From: Cyanidioschyzon merolae
Lineage: Eukaryota
Assembly: GCA_000091205.1 (NCBI GenBank)
Contig: AP006488.2
DNA length: 64,000 nt
Strand: one strand, 5' to 3'
Made by a program: the position numbers and the translations under genes. Numbering within the stretch: position 1 is the stretch's first letter; each line of letters begins with the position of its first letter. This document shows, piece after piece, positions 16,950-59,224 of the stretch. The notes beneath the pieces are model-generated. The model saw only the letters and a list, made by a program, of their open reading frames with translations. It was not told where the DNA came from and did not search any database.

Positions 16950-18236
16950 CTATTCAATACGCCCGGGGTTTGCGTTACGACTCTTGTGCGCATCGCTCGT
17001 CGCCGATAACCGCTCTGGAAGCTGGTCCACATGAAATGGGAACATTTCGCCCTCTGCTATCGCTCGAATGCCTTCACGATAGCTGGGGTACCACAGATCT
17101 GCCGAGCCGCCCAGCAGGACTGCCTTTGCCGTGTGGTTGCGGATGCGCTTCTGGAGGCGGGATTCCGAAGAAATCGCGCTTAACTGACCCGTTCTGGACT
17201 GCGCTGCATAGTCCTCAACCTGAGCACGCGTCGCAGGTTCATTGTCCACCAGGTTGAAGACGCCCTTTGCTCTCTGTGCAACACCGCTGAGCAGGAGACG
17301 CGCAGCGTCGGCAACGTGTATTCGATTCACCAGCGTATCACGCGGTCGCCGCGATCCTTGCCTAGTTTCGCTGTGCTCGTGGTAGGCCAACATCGTGTCC
17401 AGGACACTGCGACGTGTCCATCCACGCTTGCCTCTTAGCGATGGTGGAATCGGACCGTATACGGCCCCAAGTCGGAAGCGGGCGAGTCGCACTTCCAGTC
17501 GATGTGCGAGCTCTCCTGCTCGCTGTTCAGCCTGCCAACATGCCGCTGCTTTCTCTGTGGATAAGTCGAGTGGAGCGCTTTCGTCGATCCAGGACTCTCC
17601 TCCAGGCGCATACAGACTCGTGCTCGACAGGAGACCTATCCACCGTAACGAGGGGAGGAGTCCGTCTCCGACTACGTGCTCCAACCAGGAAATCCATTCG
17701 CCGTGCACAAGTACGTGTGTGATCAATTTCAGGTGATCTGGCTCAACACATTGTGAAAGCGACAGGCAAACTCGATCTTGGAGCAGCAGGCGATAGTCAG
17801 CGACCTCCGAACCCTGACGATAACACGCAACGACGCTTTGTGGCAAGGCTGGAGCCGAGTCTTCCGCGCCTGAATGTGGCTGCGGGCTTGTTTCACAGTG
17901 CTTTCCGTGCACCCAAAGGCAAGCCACTGCAGTGGTAACATAGCCCAGAGGCACAATGAGTAGGCTTGTTGGCGAGGTCTCGCGCTCAGTGACGAGCCTC
18001 CACGAGCTGAGACGGGACGCGAGCCCAGGACGTTGCAATCTACTGAGCGCTCTCAAGGGAAAGCGGTGACCTGGTAAAGTCCTCGTCGGCTGCTGCACGA
18101 AAAGAAGAGCAGGGTATGGTCTACCACGCCTTTGAACAGTGGTTTTCGCGGTTTGCATCAGTACGGCAAACGTCGAGCGTTCTTGGGAACGAGTTGTTGC
18201 TGCGAGCGTATACACCCTTGACAGAATAAAGCGCAA
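16950..18236 (-). CDS. SDR39U1/YfcH-like NAD-dependent epimerase family protein (possibly degenerate)
   Basis: The C-terminal two-thirds is collinear with YfcH-type epimerases (…RLGAVYGPIPP…RIHVADAARLLLSGVAQRAKGVFNLVDNEPATRAQVEDYAAQ… vs WIHIDDMV…GPFNMVSP.PVRN.EFA.AL). The N-terminal GxxGxxG Rossmann motif is not recognisable (LLIVPLGYVTTAVA). Confidence 0.35.
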   Translation of the reverse strand: MRFILSRVYTLAATTRSQERSTFAVLMQTAKTTVQRRGRPYPALLFVQQPTRTLPGHRFPLRALSRLQRPGLASRLSSWRLVTERETSPTSLLIVPLGYVTTAVACLWVHGKHCETSPQPHSGAEDSAPALPQSVVACYRQGSEVADYRLLLQDRVCLSLSQCVEPDHLKLITHVLVHGEWISWLEHVVGDGLLPSLRWIGLLSSTSLYAPGGESWIDESAPLDLSTEKAAACWQAEQRAGELAHRLEVRLARFRLGAVYGPIPPSLRGKRGWTRRSVLDTMLAYHEHSETRQGSRRPRDTLVNRIHVADAARLLLSGVAQRAKGVFNLVDNEPATRAQVEDYAAQSRTGQLSAISSESRLQKRIRNHTAKAVLLGGSADLWYPSYREGIRAIAEGEMFPFHVDQLPERLSATSDAHKSRNANPGRIE

Positions 18237-20179: not shown

Positions 20180-22504
20180 CTAGGGAGCAACATTCAGCAG
20201 GAGACGCCACAGCGCATAGTTCGGCAGACCAATGAGCCCGGTCTCGCGGCGAATGCATTCAAGCATCTCGTAAAGCCGCTCTCGCGGGGCCTCCCGATCC
20301 GTAGAAACCGCTCGTTGTGAAAGCACGGCAAGAACAGTGGCCAGCACACGATAGCTTCCAGCGCTTGTGAAATAGACAGCGCTTCCTCGCTGCAGCACCG
20401 CTTCTGCTGTCGCCACAGCTTTCAAAAGCGCACCTTGATCTGTACCCGTTTCTGCGGCAAGTGACCCGTCATCGGGCCATTCTGCTGTCATCAAGAGGCG
20501 ATTGCTGGGCAATGGCACCAGAAGCAGACGAATGCCCAGGCGCGTCGCACTTACTTGGAGCTGTTCCCGCTCCGCTGGGTTTGTACAGTGGACACGTTCG
20601 TGTGGTAGAAAAACGATCACGAGTCCGAGTGACCGGTCGGTAGACGCGGCTACGAGTGAAACGAGCGTCGTTTGGAGCTGTGTCGCAGAGAGGAAGGGGC
20701 CCACAAGCACTGCAGGATTCACCGATAAGCTGATCAAGGTTGGCGTTGTTGCCGTACTCGGCGGCGAAACGATATCCTCGCATACCATCGTGTGATTCAG
20801 ACAAGTGGTTTCATCGCACAAACGTCGAAATCGTGTCGGTCGATGTTCGTACTGAATAGCGTCTTCTGCTTCCGATTCTATTGCGTAGATATATTCCACG
20901 TCATCCCACGGCGGTCGGACAATGCTGAGTTCCCAGGTATCGGGCTCCGAGGCCGCACGCTGTAAGGCCACAAGACCTGGTTGCGTCCATAGCCCCAGTT
21001 GATACACGTCGCCGGTGGCGTAGACTTTCTTGATCAAATGCTCGGGTTGAGCAGGAGCCACTGGCCTTTCGATATGCACGCGCAACTTGATCAACGTAAA
21101 AGCATCTTGCACTGCTTCAATGTAGTCGTGAACTCGAACCGGTTTGGAAGCACTCGAACGCGAGACCGAGCGAACTCGAGGACGAAAAGCATCCAACCAT
21201 GCGTTATCCGTTGAGGAGTGTCGCAGTATCGATTCAGCTGTGGTGATAGAGGCTGCGCCTGTGCGTTGCACGCTGTATGCAGGCACTTCAAATATTACTC
21301 GTGTTGCGCGTCGATCACCTAAACGGTCGTCGAGAAAGAAATATACGTAGCGAATGGATTCGCTGGTGAGTGCGCCCGTCGAAAACAGCGCTACAGTCAG
21401 GTAAAATGTGCGTCGCTGAACAGAGAATTCCAGCTTACGAGCGACGTTCAGATTCCAGCTTCCCAACTCCATCATGTTGCCTGTCATGCAAAGACTCAAG
21501 TGATTCGCAGCGGCTTCCATTTGTTGTAGCACGCTGTCGTCACACTGAACGGCAAAATGAATGCATACATGTCCGGGTGATGAGGTTCTCTCGGCAACAG
21601 CGGTATCCGTTTGTTGCGCTAGCACGCTGCTCGCCGGCATGTGTGCGGCTTTCTCTAGGAAAGGTGCTGCTGAGTGGTGTGCACCACCAGCACGCAACAC
21701 GGAAGCGCTGCTGGTGCTCTCTAGGAAAGGTGATGCTGAGTCGTGTACACCACCAGCATGCAACACGGAAGCGCTGCTGCTGCTGCTGTTGTTGTTGTTG
21801 TTGTCCGTCGCAGCAACGCGAGTATCGCATTCCGTTCGTGTGAGGGAAGGCAGCGGTTCCGCCTCCGCCTTTGGCGATGGGGTGACTCGACTCGCTGGCG
21901 GCGTCCGTAGCCTTACGTCCAAGCGAGGGTGCACGGTGTGCGCACTCATAGAGCACTGCTTCGACGCCAGCGCTGCCTCGATATGCTCTTTCTGTGACCG
22001 GGTTTGCAAGCGAGGACGCAGTGCAGAAGCGCCTGGCAAGACGTCCAGCTGGAGCACCAGCGCTGGCGCGAAGTATGTGCTTCTCTTGGGCAAAAACTGG
22101 CTAGAGACGGACTGCCATATCGACGCATAGCGGTTCTCAAGCGCAGCCAACCGAGCAAGCTTCCAGTTCGAGGCGGTTCCTTGGAAACAGTTTGGAACCT
22201 CAAGCGCTGTGAGTCGAAGCGTGCTCACTGCTTCAGGGTCCCTGGCAAGGAATCCAACACTCGGTACTCTCGCTTGTATAAGCCGCTCAAGTTCCAATGA
22301 ACCAGACGGCACTTGCCCTTCGTCCGGGCGTTTCAAGCTCTCTGACGCCGGTGTCAGGTTCCAGACTGCGTCGCGAGGCGATAGCCTCCGCTCGGAGACA
22401 CGGCAGGAAAGCCGTTGTTCCCATTCCAGTTTATGTGCTGAGAGGTCCGTACAGTCCAAGAAGACTCTCGTCCCGTAGTGGAACGGAGGTGCTGCAGTAG
22501 CCAT
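20180..22504 (-). CDS. Laforin-like protein: two CBM20-like starch-binding modules + C-terminal dual-specificity-phosphatase-like domain with Thr in place of catalytic Cys
   Basis: There are two segments with the CBM20 topology and key aromatics (VCIHFAVQCDD…MELGSWNL…FYLTVALFS…IRYVYFFLD; IKLRVHIERPV…YQLGLWTQ…DTWELSIVRPPWDDVEYIYAIE). The C-terminus has WPDDG(general-acid-like)…x30…AVYFTSAGSYRVLATVLAVL, which aligns to DSP VLVHCxAGxSRSxTxxxAYLM with C->T and H->F. The N-terminal 250 aa are low-complexity (poly-N/S, internal duplication). Confidence 0.45.
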   Translation of the reverse strand: MATAAPPFHYGTRVFLDCTDLSAHKLEWEQRLSCRVSERRLSPRDAVWNLTPASESLKRPDEGQVPSGSLELERLIQARVPSVGFLARDPEAVSTLRLTALEVPNCFQGTASNWKLARLAALENRYASIWQSVSSQFLPKRSTYFAPALVLQLDVLPGASALRPRLQTRSQKEHIEAALASKQCSMSAHTVHPRLDVRLRTPPASRVTPSPKAEAEPLPSLTRTECDTRVAATDNNNNNSSSSSASVLHAGGVHDSASPFLESTSSASVLRAGGAHHSAAPFLEKAAHMPASSVLAQQTDTAVAERTSSPGHVCIHFAVQCDDSVLQQMEAAANHLSLCMTGNMMELGSWNLNVARKLEFSVQRRTFYLTVALFSTGALTSESIRYVYFFLDDRLGDRRATRVIFEVPAYSVQRTGAASITTAESILRHSSTDNAWLDAFRPRVRSVSRSSASKPVRVHDYIEAVQDAFTLIKLRVHIERPVAPAQPEHLIKKVYATGDVYQLGLWTQPGLVALQRAASEPDTWELSIVRPPWDDVEYIYAIESEAEDAIQYEHRPTRFRRLCDETTCLNHTMVCEDIVSPPSTATTPTLISLSVNPAVLVGPFLSATQLQTTLVSLVAASTDRSLGLVIVFLPHERVHCTNPAEREQLQVSATRLGIRLLLVPLPSNRLLMTAEWPDDGSLAAETGTDQGALLKAVATAEAVLQRGSAVYFTSAGSYRVLATVLAVLSQRAVSTDREAPRERLYEMLECIRRETGLIGLPNYALWRLLLNVAP

Positions 22505-33743: not shown

Positions 33744-34502
33744 ATGAAGGAGATCTGTCCGGAGTTCGATGAACGGAAGACAGAGTTCACCGCTGAAAAC
33801 CGGGAGACGTACTTGAAGAGTATCCTCAATTTCAAACGTCTCAAAGTAAGCAAGAAAAAGAAATTCACTGGGATGATCGAAACCGATGGAGTATCTATAT
33901 GTGTACACGATCGGCGGTTGAAGGTGGATCGTCCAGTCCTGCCTTCAGCCTCGCCCGTGACGAAGCATGAAGGTGAGAAGGAGGCGGATCCTGCGATGCA
34001 GGAGTTGGAGGATAACGACCTTGGCGTTGACGTGGCGAAGCATGAAGAAAAGGAGAAGGCTGTTCCTGTGACTCAGGAGATAGAGCATAACGACCTTGTC
34101 GTTGACGTGACGAAGGATGAAGAAAAGAAAGAGGCGGATCCTGTGATGCAGGAGATGGAGGGGAACGACCTTGTCGTAGGCGCGGCGAATCATGAAGATG
34201 AGAAGGAAGCGAATCCTACCACGCAGAAAGCGCATGAGAACGACTTTGTAGTTGGCGCGGACCCCGGAAGCACAAATATCATAACCATCGCTGCTCCCAA
34301 GCTCGCGGAAGATGGTATTGACGGGAACTTGCGTCAGAAATATATGCGTCTTCTGCGGCTCTCGAGAGCGAGATACTATCGACAATCGGGAATCATGAAT
34401 GCGAGGAAGAAAATCGTTACGTGGAATGTAGGAATGAAAGAGCACCTGGAAGCTCTGAGTGAGGTGACGAGCCGAGGAGCGGACTTTCGAGCTTTTCGGT
34501 GA
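33744..34502 (+). pseudogene. Fanzor/TnpB-like nuclease, middle segment with RuvC-I motif and 25-aa tandem duplications
   Basis: GADPGSTNIITIAAPK is preceded by four 25-aa acidic repeats (…KHEGEKEADPAMQELEDNDLGVDVA / KHEEKEKAVPVTQEIEHNDLVVDVT / …). It ends in a stop that is frame-shifted relative to the next segment. Confidence 0.5.
33956..34255. repeat. 75-bp tandem repeat x4 inside the Fanzor-like ORF
   Basis: The period is 75 (cgtgacgaagcatgaag… at 33956, 34031, 34106, 34181). It encodes 25-aa repeats ending in NDLVV/NDFVV. Confidence 0.85.
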
Positions 34503-35365
34503 TTCATGGAAGTTCGCGTTGCGCATTGGGATGCGCTATGGGAGGAGTATACCAAGCCCCGGTGGGCTCGTCTGCGTATGAATCGATACGGTGGGAAGCA
34601 GCGGGCGTTCGCGAATTTTTCAATCAGCCGAGCGCCTTGAAGGAGGATCAAAGTCAGAGGCTCGTAGTAGCGTATGGGGCACGGAGCTGGAAGACCAAAA
34701 AAGGGTGTACGCCAGCTCCAACGACAAGGGTGTACAAGGAGTGCGCACGGCGTTTCGTTACAATACCTGTAGATGAGTTTCGAACATTGTATACACACCA
34801 TGAACTGGGTTGTACACTTCAGCGAGTGGAGATGGAAAAGTGCCACAGGAGCCCTGAGGAAATAGCAAAATACGGACCGTTGACGGAGGAGCAAATGGAA
34901 AGGAGGGTGAACGTTCGTGGATTACTTGCACTAGTAAGTACAACCAGTGATGGCAAGAAACGTATGGAGTTTGTGAATCGTGACTTTAATGCCGCAATCA
35001 ATGTACGGAGATGTGCGGTGCTGGAGAATAGACTTCCAGAGTCGACAAGAGTGAACTTTGTTGGACAACCTCTCAAAGTCGAATTATATGAGAAAAAGTT
35101 GGAAGCAGTCGTAGGTGGCCGGTCGAGAAACGGCGGGAAGGCGTCTGCACATCAGCTGGACACGTTATGTCTAGGGCGCGGTTTTCCCGCCACTACGGTA
35201 CACTGTCGGCGACGTCGTTCGACTTTCGAACGGCGTTTGGAGGCGCGGCTTTGGCGGGAAACGCTTGGTGGGCGCTATCTGCTCCAAACGCTCTGTGTTC
35301 AACGTCATACGGTTTACGTTTTGACGCTTCATGGATTGGCACGCGGCTCCAGTTTACTATACTGA
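34499..35365 (+). pseudogene. Fanzor/TnpB-like nuclease, C-terminal segment (Cys-rich region + RuvC-III D-x-NAAINV)
   Basis: GTG-initiated ORF in a different frame from the upstream segment. It has the NRDFNAAINVRRCAVLEN motif. The tail after ~35160 is read-through into the MCM5 5' region. Confidence 0.5.
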
Positions 35366-37637
35366 TCAGGGTGTTGGAGTACCAGGTGCTGAAGAGCAAA
35401 GTGGAAATGTTTCTATCCAAGAACGGCGAATCATTGAGTTCTTGCTGCAGTTTCGCTCAGCTCCAAACGTGTTCCCTTATCGCGATCAGCTTGTGCGCCA
35501 GCTGCACGCTCGCAAGCACTGGATTCAGATCAAGATAGAGGACGTGTACGCCTTTGATGAAGAACTGGCTGGGTATATTCGCCAAGCGCCTAACGAATGG
35601 ATAGAGCGCTTGGAGCAAGCAGTCGATCGGGTGGTACGTCGGCTGCGGCTGCCGCTGGACCACGAGATAGGCGGTGTTTCGGTGCAGGTGTTGCTGCAGT
35701 CCCAGGAGAACGCATTTCCGTTGAGGGAACTCCAGTCCGATCAGCTGGGGCGCCTTGTGCGTGTACAAGGCATTGTTATTTCCGCTTCAAAAGTACGCGC
35801 GAAAGCGCAGGTCGTCTGGTTACGTTGCCAGCACTGTGACTACCGAAAGATGATACGTGCTTCAGTGGGATTCGGTGGTTTCCAGGTGCCCCGCCAATGC
35901 GATCGTGTGACGGAAATGCGTTGCCCTCTGGACTCGTATGAGGTGATGCCGCATGAAAGCGTGTTTGTTGATCACCAGACAGTGAAGCTGCAGGAGCTGC
36001 CCGAGTCGGTACCCACTGGGGAGGTCCCTCGATCGCTCCTGCTCGTTCTCGAGCGGAATCTGATTGATAGAGTAGCTCCTGGTGAGCGCGTCAGCGCTGT
36101 CGGTGTTTACTCGACATACGCCAGCACTCGTGATCGGAGCAGTCGTTCTGTGGCAGCTAACATTGCCACAAGGGCTAGCGGACCAGACCTTGTAGCAGCG
36201 GTGAGAACTCCGTATATCCGAGTCCTCGGCATTGATGCTACGCAGGAAAGACGTGACCGTCATCCAGGCTTTACCCCGGAGGAAGAGGAAGCCATGCGCA
36301 GCTTGAGTCGACTGCCAAACGTGTACGAAGTCTTGGCGGCGAGCATTGCCCCAGAAATCTGGGGTCTCTCCGATCCAAAACGTGCGGTATTGTGCCAACT
36401 ATTCGGTGGCTCTCGTAAGACGCTTCCAGACGGAATGAGAATTCGAGGCGATATCAATGTGCTTCTTCTGGGCGATCCGTCTACCGCAAAATCACAGCTG
36501 CTCAAGTTTGCGGAGAAGGTCGCACCGGTCTCCGTGTATACGAGCGGCAAAGGCTCTTCCGCCGCAGGGCTGACCGCCTCTGTTATTCGAGACGCCACGC
36601 ATGGTGAATTCCATCTCGAAGGCGGTGCGATGGTGCTAGCTGACGGTGGTATCGTCTGCATTGACGAGTTTGACAAGATGCGCCTCGCAGACCGTGTCGC
36701 CATCCACGAGGCCATGGAGCAGCAGACCATTTCCATCGCCAAGGCCGGGATCACCACCGTGCTGAACTCGCGCACGGCAGTTTTGGCGGCAGCGAATCCT
36801 CTTTTTGGTTCGTTTGACGATACGCGCACTGTAGCGGATCAGATGGAGTTTGCATCCACGATTCTTTCTCGTTTCGACCTCATATTTCTGGTCCGCGACG
36901 TGCGCAATGATGAACGTGATCGAACGATTGCCCGACATGTACTAGCGCTGCATCAACGGGGCCACAGTCTGCGCCCGCAGGGCTCTGGACTCGATTCGGC
37001 TGGTGATATCAGCGATTCAGGAATGCTGTCTTTGTCACCGAACGGTGCTAGCGAGTTCACCTCCAGCCAGATGCTGAACGCCGTTGGTCTTGTCCCGATC
37101 GACAAGTTGCGTCGCTATGTCGCCTACGCCAGACGCCGTTGCCGACCACGCCTCTCCGCAGAGGCTGCTGACCTACTACGAACAGCGTACGTGGCAGTAC
37201 GCCAGGAGCTGCGCGATCGTACGGCAGATGGACCGACTCCTGTACCGATTGCGGTACGCCAGCTGGAATCCCTCATCCGCTTGACCGAGGCGTTGGCCAA
37301 GATGCGCCTGAGCGATCTTGCATCAGCTGCTGATGCCGAAGAGGCACTGCGGCTTTTCCGAGTCGCCACCATGGCCGCAGCGCACGCAGGTGCGCTACCT
37401 CCTGGTGCCTTTGAGGGTACCCTGAGCGGGGAATTTCTCATTGAGGTTCAAGCAGCCGAAGCAGCAATTCGGCGGCGCATCGCCATTGGTTCCATGCTCG
37501 CTTTGAACCGGCTGGTACGTGAACTCACCCAGCAGCATCTGTCTGCAGCGGCGACCCAGCGGGCGATCCAGATCATGCTCGGGCGACAGGAGCTCGAATG
37601 GCGTCGACAACGGACAGTACTGTGCCGTTTACGGTGA
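35331..37637 (+). CDS. MCM5: DNA replication licensing factor MCM5, 768 aa
   Basis: The MCM5-type N-terminus is MDWHAAPVYYTD…RRIIEFLLQFR. The Walker A motif is GDINVLLLGDPSTAKSQLLKF. The Walker B / arginine finger region is CIDEFDKM…SRFDLIFLV, with the MCM box and C-terminal winged helix. Confidence 0.9.
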   Translation: MDWHAAPVYYTDQGVGVPGAEEQSGNVSIQERRIIEFLLQFRSAPNVFPYRDQLVRQLHARKHWIQIKIEDVYAFDEELAGYIRQAPNEWIERLEQAVDRVVRRLRLPLDHEIGGVSVQVLLQSQENAFPLRELQSDQLGRLVRVQGIVISASKVRAKAQVVWLRCQHCDYRKMIRASVGFGGFQVPRQCDRVTEMRCPLDSYEVMPHESVFVDHQTVKLQELPESVPTGEVPRSLLLVLERNLIDRVAPGERVSAVGVYSTYASTRDRSSRSVAANIATRASGPDLVAAVRTPYIRVLGIDATQERRDRHPGFTPEEEEAMRSLSRLPNVYEVLAASIAPEIWGLSDPKRAVLCQLFGGSRKTLPDGMRIRGDINVLLLGDPSTAKSQLLKFAEKVAPVSVYTSGKGSSAAGLTASVIRDATHGEFHLEGGAMVLADGGIVCIDEFDKMRLADRVAIHEAMEQQTISIAKAGITTVLNSRTAVLAAANPLFGSFDDTRTVADQMEFASTILSRFDLIFLVRDVRNDERDRTIARHVLALHQRGHSLRPQGSGLDSAGDISDSGMLSLSPNGASEFTSSQMLNAVGLVPIDKLRRYVAYARRRCRPRLSAEAADLLRTAYVAVRQELRDRTADGPTPVPIAVRQLESLIRLTEALAKMRLSDLASAADAEEALRLFRVATMAAAHAGALPPGAFEGTLSGEFLIEVQAAEAAIRRRIAIGSMLALNRLVRELTQQHLSAAATQRAIQIMLGRQELEWRRQRTVLCRLR

Positions 37638-57730: not shown

Positions 57731-59224
57731 CTATTGCTCGAGGATAAATTCCTGAACAGGGCGTCCAAGGTGGCGCGCTATGGTACCGTTACTGTCTCGC
57801 GCCGGTCGATGCACCAAAACCTGATGCTGTCCTCTATTCAGACTTGTCACCGCAACATTCCCGTGCTGACTAGAGGACGTACCTGAGGTCGTGGGCATCG
57901 CGAAGCGCACAGTCTCCGCGTTCTGGACGATGACGTTCCCGGCGATGTCGCCGCTCCACGATTCCGTCTTGTTGCCGGCAGCGGCACCCGTACCGTCCGC
58001 ATGGAGACTTAGCTGCACGAGTAGCAACGGACGACGCTCGATTTTCGCTCGTCCAAGCGTTACAGAGCGACTTCGACCCGAGCGGGCGTCCACCGCAAGG
58101 AGTTCATCGCCAGCTCGCAGCTCGCAGAGATACTTGGTCGAGCCATCGGGGACAAGGATGTACGAATGGACGGCACCGGCATTCACGCGAAAAGGCCTAC
58201 TAGCAACGTATGGGTTCTGAGCAGCTTCGCTGAGCACCAGGGCCAGAGTGGAGGCGCTGGAGCCCACCAGAAACCCTTCGTGAAACGCCAGCAGCGAACA
58301 GGTGTCAAGACAAACACGCTCGCCAACACCAGCTTCGCGCACGTCCACAACCACAGCTGGATCCAATACGAGACTGTTTTCGAGCCGTTGATAACGATTG
58401 CGTAGACTAGCGAAGGATTCAACGGCGCTGGCGCTCCCTGTGGCCAGAATAACGCCATGGACACCGCGCTCTAAGCTTGCAAGCTGTGCCTCAGCCATGC
58501 CCGTCGTCGACACGACAACGAGTATACTCGTTTGTCTCTGATACGCTACGCTGACCAGATTTTCAACGGGTATGAGTTCCCAGTCTTTCGTTTCAACCAT
58601 GACAATAGAGCGGCAAGGCAGGTTTTCTTCCAGAGCGTGCACATCTTCCGCGGACTGCAGTTCGTAAAATACTGCGTATGTAGCACCGGTGCGCTGCTCC
58701 CGCACCAATCGTGGACAGGTTCCGTGTGCTACAATATATCGTGCATCAGTGGTTGGCTCTTTCCACTCTCCCCAGGTTGTCGCATGCTCGTGTACCAGAA
58801 CGGGAAAAGCGAGGTCCACTGCACGCGCGTATGCCTCTTGAGTGGCAGGCATAACCCAGAATGAACGCGAACTTGACGATAGTGCGTGATCCGCGCGACG
58901 CAAAGCGGCTCCGTCTGCGTAGGTCTCTGCAACCTCCTGGATGAACTGAAGGGAACAGGCACCCAGAGAGTGCCTCTGTGAGCGTTCGACAGTCCGTCGA
59001 CAGCGCCCGACGTGCCGGTGTCGCGGGCCCAGCAGCCTTGATCCAGTGTCTGGGTTCCTTGTGAACTTCCGTGGATGCGATTCTACATAAAATCCTGTTC
59101 GAGTCGGAGCGTGTGCTCTCAGAGAGCGAGCTGTCGACCAAAGAGCGGTTGCAGCGGCGCCACCGCTCCACGAACACCTTGAGAAGCTCGGCGGACACAA
59201 CCAGGAAACTGCTTGCGACGACAT
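57731..59224 (-). CDS. 3-dehydroquinate synthase type II (archaeal-type DHQS, aroB' / PF01959 family) with ~100-aa N-terminal extension
   Basis: [104 protein letters not shown]…[10 protein letters not shown] is collinear with Methanocaldococcus-type DHQS II (…RVCIDTCSLM..GEGMLIGS…[27 protein letters not shown]…KYLSELKAGDKVLIVD…GRVKIERRPLVLIEA…ILQNAETIRL). Confidence 0.7.
   Translation of the reverse strand: [497 protein letters not shown]

Follow-up and report, generated by a model that had tools for sequence, protein, structure and literature searches.

CMF167C of Cyanidioschyzon merolae, a laforin-architecture protein with tandem CBM20 modules and a predicted non-catalytic phosphatase-fold domain

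Laforin relatives and the CMF167C gene

Reversible phosphorylation of glucans governs the turnover of starch and glycogen, and Lafora disease results from the loss of laforin. The non-catalytic roles of laforin are under debate, and recent studies have over-expressed a phosphatase-deficient Cys-to-Ser (C/S) mutant of the protein, as described in the abstract of one report (PMC12834914). Here we analyze CMF167C, a gene of the red alga Cyanidioschyzon merolae that lies within a 64,000-nucleotide stretch of contig AP006488.2 (assembly GCA_000091205.1; hereafter the window) and whose product combines two CBM20 modules with a C-terminal domain predicted to adopt the fold of protein tyrosine and dual-specificity phosphatases (PTP/DSP). 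CMF167C is probably a non-catalytic pseudophosphatase of laforin architecture, acting in the cytosolic system that handles floridean starch in cyanidiophycean red algae. A sequence-only reading of the window had proposed a laforin-like pseudophosphatase with tandem CBM20 modules at this locus; the observation is confirmed, and its interpretation is supported with the corrections detailed below.

C. merolae encodes a laforin whose activity has been demonstrated. Cm-laforin, which localizes around floridean starch granules, is a proven glucan phosphatase that the C/S mutation inactivates (PMC2064834). Given that the Cm-laforin locus is CMT465C (supplement of PMC2714694), CMF167C represents a second laforin-architecture gene in C. 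merolae, one that exists besides the laforin gene and is not a degenerate orthologue of laforin. PMC8703398, citing Kuchtova et al. 2018, reports more than one CBM20 for red-algal laforins, that of C. merolae included; what is unusual about CMF167C is therefore not its double CBM, contrary to what had been supposed from the letters. The laforin TgLaforin dimerizes via its DSP domain (PMC9254107). CMF167C resembles laforins in carrying its CBM20 modules ahead of a C-terminal DSP-fold domain, shares with the red-algal members the presence of more than one CBM20 as well as the Gly and Arg of the P-loop, and, coming from the same organism as Cm-laforin, presumably operates in the same cytosolic floridean-starch context. 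It differs from laforin in lacking the nucleophilic Cys (Thr713), the acid Asp (Ser667), the His that precedes the nucleophile and the Ser/Thr that follows the Arg, in having an insertion after the acid-loop position, an additional conserved region at the N-terminus and a long linker predicted to be disordered, and in a DSP domain too diverged for the Pfam DSPc family.

Inactive myotubularins share a genome with active relatives and pair with active paralogues. Like these proteins, STYX and MK-STYX, CMF167C couples a PTP/DSP fold to a replaced Cys, a retained P-loop Arg and a conserved substituted loop; as with the inactive myotubularins, its genome encodes an active relative as well. In contrast to members of this class, CMF167C has Thr rather than Gly, Ser or other residues at the Cys position and is fused to carbohydrate-binding modules, so that its ligand is to be expected in a polysaccharide setting, not among phosphoproteins or phosphoinositides. 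We detected no specific relationship in sequence with those families, and CMF167C joins the STYX-like class by features, not by descent.

The plant protein LSF1 is reported to be a non-catalytic starch-granule scaffold for the beta-amylases BAM1 and BAM3 and for MDH (PMC11986951, PMC12892837), and it shares with CMF167C a DSP-fold domain, a carbohydrate-binding part and an additional region for protein interaction (in CMF167C, a putative one). LSF1 has the SEX4-type order (DSP, then CBM) plus a PDZ-like domain (PMC12892837), whereas in CMF167C the CBM20s precede the DSP and neither a PDZ nor another Pfam domain is present. LSF1 is also plastidial and belongs to the green lineage, and it keeps the Cys of C-x5-R (VTCTTGFDRS; PDB 8j5d chain D), whereas the active site of CMF167C is truly substituted. 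Since its Cys is intact, LSF1 is not a pseudophosphatase of the substitution type and resembles CMF167C less than it seems to at first. Of the parallel with LSF1 drawn in the sequence-only reading, what stands is a non-catalytic, glucan-phosphatase-like role, whereas active site and architecture differ; the analogy is one of presumed function only. Pseudophosphatases and non-catalytic relatives of glucan phosphatases are thus already known kinds, of which CMF167C is a lineage-restricted variant. New in CMF167C are the change from Cys to Thr, the two CBM20s and the extra N-terminal region; neither its phosphatase-fold domain nor its predicted pseudoenzyme nature has been annotated, or described in searchable papers.

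The gene corresponds to an uninterrupted open reading frame (ORF) on the minus strand of the window, whose 774-aa translation is an exact match to CMF167C of C. merolae 10D (BAM79521.1, XP_005535807.1, UniProt M1UPX2); the translation assumed earlier is thereby confirmed. Databases name the product ‘hypothetical protein’ or ‘CBM20 domain-containing protein’ only. From N- to C-terminus it consists of a conserved N-terminal region, a disordered linker, two CBM20s (CBM1 and CBM2) and the C-terminal DSP-fold domain.

The few homologues retrieved comprise C. merolae strain variants from JGI metagenomes (which form a 34-member cluster), a protein of Cyanidiococcus yangmingshanensis (P0004; F1559_001753, a truncated model of 276 aa) together with a closely related contig (P0002), a third lineage (P0003/P0141), and P0005 from an ENA metagenome assembly, the most distant orthologue at roughly 30% identity and an orthologue by position. 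The public models P0003 (529 aa) and P0004 (276 aa) are N-terminally short compared with the full ORFs P0141 (729 aa) and P0002 (740 aa); both lose the N-terminal region, and P0004 also both CBM20 cores.

The C-terminal domain and its altered P-loop

Profile-to-profile comparison linked the C-terminal domain to DSPs. As query for hhalign we used the alignment of this domain from five orthologues, and as targets the DSP domains of laforin, LSF2 and LSF1, or a version of this set enriched with ten vertebrate laforins. The laforin reference was the human protein, checked to be identical to 4rkk save for the engineered C266S, and the sequences of LSF2 (4kyq) and LSF1 (8j5d) were taken from structure alignments. 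The basic set aligned with a probability of 69% (E 4.4e-5) over 107 co-linear columns and the enriched set with the same probability (E 4.5e-5) over 71. The real score of 36.9 lay about 10 standard deviations above those of 200 column shuffles (12.9 +/- 2.3; maximum 20.1), and a reversed-alignment control scored 13.1. By this measure of sequence profiles, the DSP resemblance of the domain is beyond chance.

The predicted structure points the same way. AlphaFold2 (AF2), run on aa 585-774 with a 4-sequence alignment, produced one confident model (pLDDT, the predicted score of the local distance difference test, 72.8; predicted template modelling score, pTM, 0.75). Its elements follow in the order strand, strand, helix, strand, helix, strand, low-confidence insertion, helix and P-loop strand onward, which is the element order of a dual-specificity phosphatase, and an independent full-length AF2 run reproduced it. 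Within the P-loop part, strand 709-714 (AVYFTS) leads into a loop (AGS) and a helix starting at residue 718 (YRVLAT...), with two further helices behind; TSAGSYR, the string proposed earlier as the P-loop, is accordingly modelled in the strand-loop-helix position. A Foldseek search with the model returned PTP/DSP folds for all of the top 50 matches, from an E-value of 2.4e-5; sequence identity to the structural matches is 5-18%.

The string AVYFTSAGSYRVLATVLAVL is present as quoted in the sequence-only reading, as are HCTNPAER and WPDDG at their places. Aligned by hhalign, A-G-x-x-R stands in register with laforin CNAGVGR, LSF2 CSAGLGR and LSF1 CTTGFDR, and S-A-G-S-Y-R falls on laforin N-A-G-V-G-R. 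In this register, which agrees with the AF2 model, Thr713 occupies the Cys position and Phe712 that of the preceding His, as had been predicted, and Val720 replaces the Ser/Thr after the Arg. The Thr713 codon, ACA (20366-20368), has no base in common, position by position, with either Cys codon, and the substitution is therefore not a single-base error. Across orthologues G716 and R719 are invariant, the His position is filled by Phe, Leu or Val and the Ser/Thr position by Val or Tyr. Thr713 is kept in all five orthologues, none of which has a Cys in or beside the loop.

We found no relative that retains the Cys: a 5-sequence profile search returned P0004 only, and a HMMER profile of the C-terminal domain, run exhaustively against 1.84 billion representatives, recovered only the orthologues and one spurious bacterial repeat protein (P0006). 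Scanning metagenomes with the DSP alignment returned eight loci of LSF2/laforin type from other organisms, all with an intact HCxAGxGR, and human laforin as query had vertebrate laforins only among the matches listed.

The remaining catalytic positions are altered as well. The equivalent of laforin's general-acid loop (PTPDM, with Asp235) is PLPSN, and the Ser667-Asn pair reads S-N in the orthologues, or G-D in P0005; across orthologues, residues 658-700 hold no invariant Asp that could serve as the acid of a D-x30-C arrangement. From the loss of Cys, Asp and His we infer that the C-terminal domain is catalytically inactive.

Two further strings in the domain were considered as catalytic elements and set aside. 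WPDDG had been read as part of the DSP catalytic (acid) loop, which proved incorrect: it sits in a 16-residue insertion relative to laforin, is predicted with a pLDDT below 50, is deleted or replaced in orthologues, and is polymorphic, its Asp678 being Gly (D678G) in a 99%-identical strain variant. HCTNPAER, an upstream C-x5-R string, had been judged not to be a DSP active site, and the orthologues bear this out. It is well conserved as H/R-x-T-x-P-x-E, but not as C-x5-R, with Cys640 replaced by Gly in P0003/P0141 and Arg646 by Ala in P0005. Going by DSP topology, the loop would sit at the position of the variable (V) loop.

CBM20 modules, N-terminal region and conservation

CBM_20 was the single Pfam family recognized in CMF167C, at 40.6 bits against a cut-off of 23.3 and with two matched stretches (best, 492-558). 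The expected family (PF00686) was hence recovered for the modules, whereas DSPc (PF00782) was not for the C-terminal domain, whose DSP homology stands on hhalign and fold. The stronger module, CBM2, aligned over aa 493-560 with the CBM20s of a maltotetraohydrolase and of Aspergillus glucoamylase (phmmer against PDB sequences; E 6.8e-4 and 3.1e-3). The C. merolae CBM1 taken alone stayed below threshold (18.6 bits), whereas for the CBM1 segments of four out of four orthologues CBM_20 was the sole Pfam family matched (best E 1e-5). In a PDB profile search the ten best CBM1 matches were all CBM20-bearing amylolytic enzymes (glucoamylase, cyclodextrin glucanotransferases), the best E-value being just 0.018. 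The full-length AF2 model (mean pLDDT 38) gave no confident structure for CBM1. The two modules aligned with one another across 84 columns (hhalign E 3.5e-4). Judging from these alignments, the tandem CBM20 modules, already recognized by the sequence-only reading, are real, CBM1 being the more diverged copy.

Both modules also aligned with the laforin CBM20 profile. For CBM2 (hhalign E 5.3e-4) the laforin residues W32, W60, W99 and K87 correspond to W506, W524, Y552 and I539, respectively; Trp506 lies in the loop TGDVYQLGLWTQP, and the Tyr552 position is Trp in P0005. The aromatics of site 1 (W32, W99) are thus kept or conservatively replaced in CBM2, and the site 1 Lys (laforin K87) is lost. 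For CBM1 (E 4.6e-4) the LG.W core only was aligned, which maps W32 to W350 (Trp350; 21455-21457, within the loop ELGSWNLNVARKL) and leaves the equivalents of K87 and W99 unplaced.

Conservation was ranked in windows of 13 residues across four full-length orthologues. The first rank went to the sugar-binding loop of CBM2, TGDVYQLGLWTQP (mean identity 0.96), the second to the equivalent loop of CBM1, ELGSWNLNVARKL (0.94), and the third to the pseudo-P-loop, AVYFTSAGSYRVL (0.90). TSAGS.R is invariant even in the 30%-identical P0005. That the sugar-binding loops and the altered P-loop are the most conserved parts suggests that selection acts hardest there, which argues for function and against decay.

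The N-terminal region contains conserved motifs, among them RLAALExR(Y/F)ASIW and PK..YF..AL...LRP.L. It showed no Pfam or PDB sequence similarity, and the full-length AF2 model has low confidence there. The linker behind it carries a 66-bp (22-aa) tandem duplication at 21652-21784 (two copies, 92% identical by Tandem Repeats Finder), which encodes the repeated peptide SASVL(H/R)AGG(V/A)H(D/H)SA(S/A)PFLE and is absent from the orthologues. Beside it, the triplet repeats (GCT)5 and (TGT)6 at 21773-21804 encode Ser and Asn runs; as P0001, a 99%-identical metagenomic variant, has one more residue in its Ser run, this linker repeat is polymorphic. The coordinates of all features are collected in Table 1.

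Table 1. Features of CMF167C and their positions in the window.
Feature	Residues (aa)	Window coordinates	Strand	Basis or remark
Complete coding sequence, 774 aa plus stop, intronless	1-774	20180..22504	-	ORF listing, exact database match
N-terminal conserved region	1-185	21950..22504	-	Kept in all full-length orthologues
Low-complexity linker, poorly conserved	186-305	21590..21949	-	2 of 120 positions invariant
CBM20 module 1 (CBM1), divergent	306-412 (approx.)	21269..21589	-	Pfam, PDB profile search, hhalign
CBM20 module 2 (CBM2), stronger	471-575 (approx.)	20780..21094	-	Pfam, phmmer vs PDB, hhalign
C-terminal PTP/DSP-fold domain (predicted), no detectable catalytic machinery	590-774	20183..20737	-	
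HCTNPAER, loop after strand beta3	639-646	20567..20590	-	Follows strand 626-634 in AF2
PLPSN, equivalent of laforin PTPDM general-acid loop, Ser667 for Asp235	664-668	20501..20515	-	hhalign
WPDDG, in 16-residue insertion relative to laforin	676-680	20465..20479	-	hhalign gap opposite laforin
Pseudo-P-loop, G707-S-A-V-Y-F-T713-S-A-G716-S-Y-R719	707-719	20348..20386	-	AF2 strand-loop-helix, hhalign register

Alternatives, proposed role and genomic setting

Several observations weigh against a laforin-architecture pseudophosphatase. No Pfam family, DSPc included, matched the C-terminal domain at E<=10, whether in the whole protein, in the isolated domain or in any of five orthologues, and a profile search of the domain against PDB sequences returned noise only (symplekin, E ~0.7). 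The other four of the five AF2 models of the domain reached a pLDDT of 48-60, leaving a single one above 70, and the full-length model is too poor (mean pLDDT 38) for a verdict on domain packing. By Foldseek the domain is generically DSP-like, with no measurably greater likeness to glucan phosphatases than to small DSPs of other kinds. The one-residue hhalign gap falls opposite the His in the LSF2-only run, making Thr713 the equivalent of the Cys, and opposite the Cys itself in the other runs; placing Thr713 at the Cys position relies on secondary structure and sequence register. Five residues back from the invariant Arg is Thr713, and the loop is thiol-free under either gap placement. With CBM2 lacking the Lys equivalent to laforin K87 and CBM1 carrying Phe where Trp is usual, starch binding by the CBM20s is no more than plausible on sequence grounds. 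The comparison with Cm-laforin draws on published descriptions of that protein, and the CMF167C locus tag was absent from searchable papers, with supplements likewise giving nothing.

Taken at their strongest, the failure of sequence libraries, the four low-confidence models, the hhalign probability of just 69% and the low identity to structural matches could mean that the C-terminal domain is not phosphatase-derived at all, its fold being a modelling artefact or a generic convergence on an alpha/beta sandwich, in other words an unrelated domain in a double-CBM20 protein. We regard this as very improbable: the hhalign score far exceeds every column-shuffled control, the alignment is co-linear over all of its 71-107 columns with A-G-x-x-R exactly on the P-loop, and the architecture is the one that PMC8703398 reports for laforin in the same group of organisms. 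A different objection accepts the fold and holds that the domain is still an active phosphatase with another nucleophile, either Cys640 of HCTNPAER or Thr713/Ser714. The invariant P-loop Gly and Arg would suit such an enzyme, strong loop conservation fits a working pocket, and the HCT loop, following a strand next to the P-loop strand in the model, probably faces the same pocket. However, the C-x5-R of HCTNPAER is broken in P0003/P0141 at the Cys and in P0005 at the Arg, the general-acid position is Ser and the pre-nucleophile His is a variable hydrophobic residue. We are aware of no enzyme with a PTP fold whose nucleophile is Thr or Ser. As the Cys-to-Ser change kills the activity of Cm-laforin itself (PMC2064834), continued catalysis appears improbable.

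Loss of the catalytic residues, restriction of the family to one small algal lineage, and a linker with recent repeats and strain polymorphisms might equally be signs of a decaying laforin duplicate without a function of its own. This is extremely improbable in view of the persistence, in at least four lineages with no more than 30-46% overall identity, of uninterrupted ORFs of 729-775 aa, of a neighbourhood conserved in three orthologue contigs (in C. merolae, for the adjacency of a ~390-aa gene only), and of a pseudo-active-site loop and two sugar-binding loops that are the most conserved parts of the protein, contrary to what neutral decay would leave; as seen in the window, the genome of C. 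merolae is moreover highly compact.

For the non-catalytic, laforin-architecture protein that we favour, the most likely role is that of a starch-granule binder or regulator alongside the real laforin. The two CBM20s would tether it to starch granules, and the DSP-like domain, presumably unable to hydrolyse phosphate esters, would be kept under selection as a binding surface. This surface could bind phosphate on the glucan without hydrolysing it, serving as ‘reader’ or protector of the C3/C6 esters, or else could be a platform for protein interactions. Such a platform might form through DSP-DSP pairing with the active laforin, as in myotubularin pseudophosphatases, or might be a scaffold for amylolytic enzymes in the manner of plant LSF1, with the N-terminal region as the likeliest partner-recruiting part. 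The net effect would be control over the reversible phosphorylation of starch and over its degradation.

A narrower proposal, that CMF167C is a dedicated non-hydrolysing reader, seems to us possible though rather doubtful. Here the CBM20s would dock the protein and the P-loop, intact in this view except for its Cys, would clamp C3/C6 glucan phosphate esters, shielding them from Cm-laforin or marking phosphorylated surface patches for degradative enzymes recruited through the N-terminal region. If true, CMF167C would amount to a naturally occurring substrate-trap form of laforin, with control over how floridean starch cycles between phosphorylation and dephosphorylation.

A naturally Cys-less protein of laforin architecture beside an active laforin would amount to a natural experiment on what the glucan-phosphatase scaffold does minus catalysis. 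C. merolae combines a minimal gene set with routine gene targeting, which makes the system tractable. A hypothetical protein gains a domain assignment that sequence libraries had missed, and the case suggests that a phosphatase fold can diverge past detection by Pfam and yet keep the motif of P-loop geometry. The immediate reach is modest, as the family is limited to a few cyanidiophycean algae.

The neighbourhood of the gene is partly conserved. The three orthologue contigs (L001, L002 and L003) have in common, in this order, a ~390-aa gene, the CMF167C orthologue, a Mpv17/PMP22 gene and a gene with a CpcD domain; the first two are direct neighbours on one strand. C. merolae keeps only the adjacency of the ~390-aa gene, on the same strand and on the opposite side of CMF167C; as this adjacency outlasted local rearrangement, it might hint at a functional link between the two genes. 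The C. merolae neighbour is a 428-aa ORF (16950-18236, minus strand) without a Pfam match, orthologous at 35-47% identity to the ~380-400-aa gene of the three contigs.

The window as a whole is a compact, intron-poor nuclear region with a GC content of about 55%, which also encodes CNOT1, EDC4, Sec23, MCM5, symplekin, GatB, a type II dehydroquinate synthase and APC4. Type II dehydroquinate synthases are typical of archaea; in this red-algal nuclear genome, the ORF at 57731-59224 (minus strand) matches 3-dehydroquinate synthase II (PF01959, E 6.5e-81) and has an N-terminal extension of ~170 aa. Directly upstream of MCM5, an ORF without a Pfam match (33744-34502) contains a coding tandem repeat of 75 bp (25 aa; 3.5 copies, 79% identity; 33956-34217, plus strand), which lies within a purine-rich stretch (GC skew +0.195 at 34001-36000; AT skew about +0.1 over 28-34 kb).

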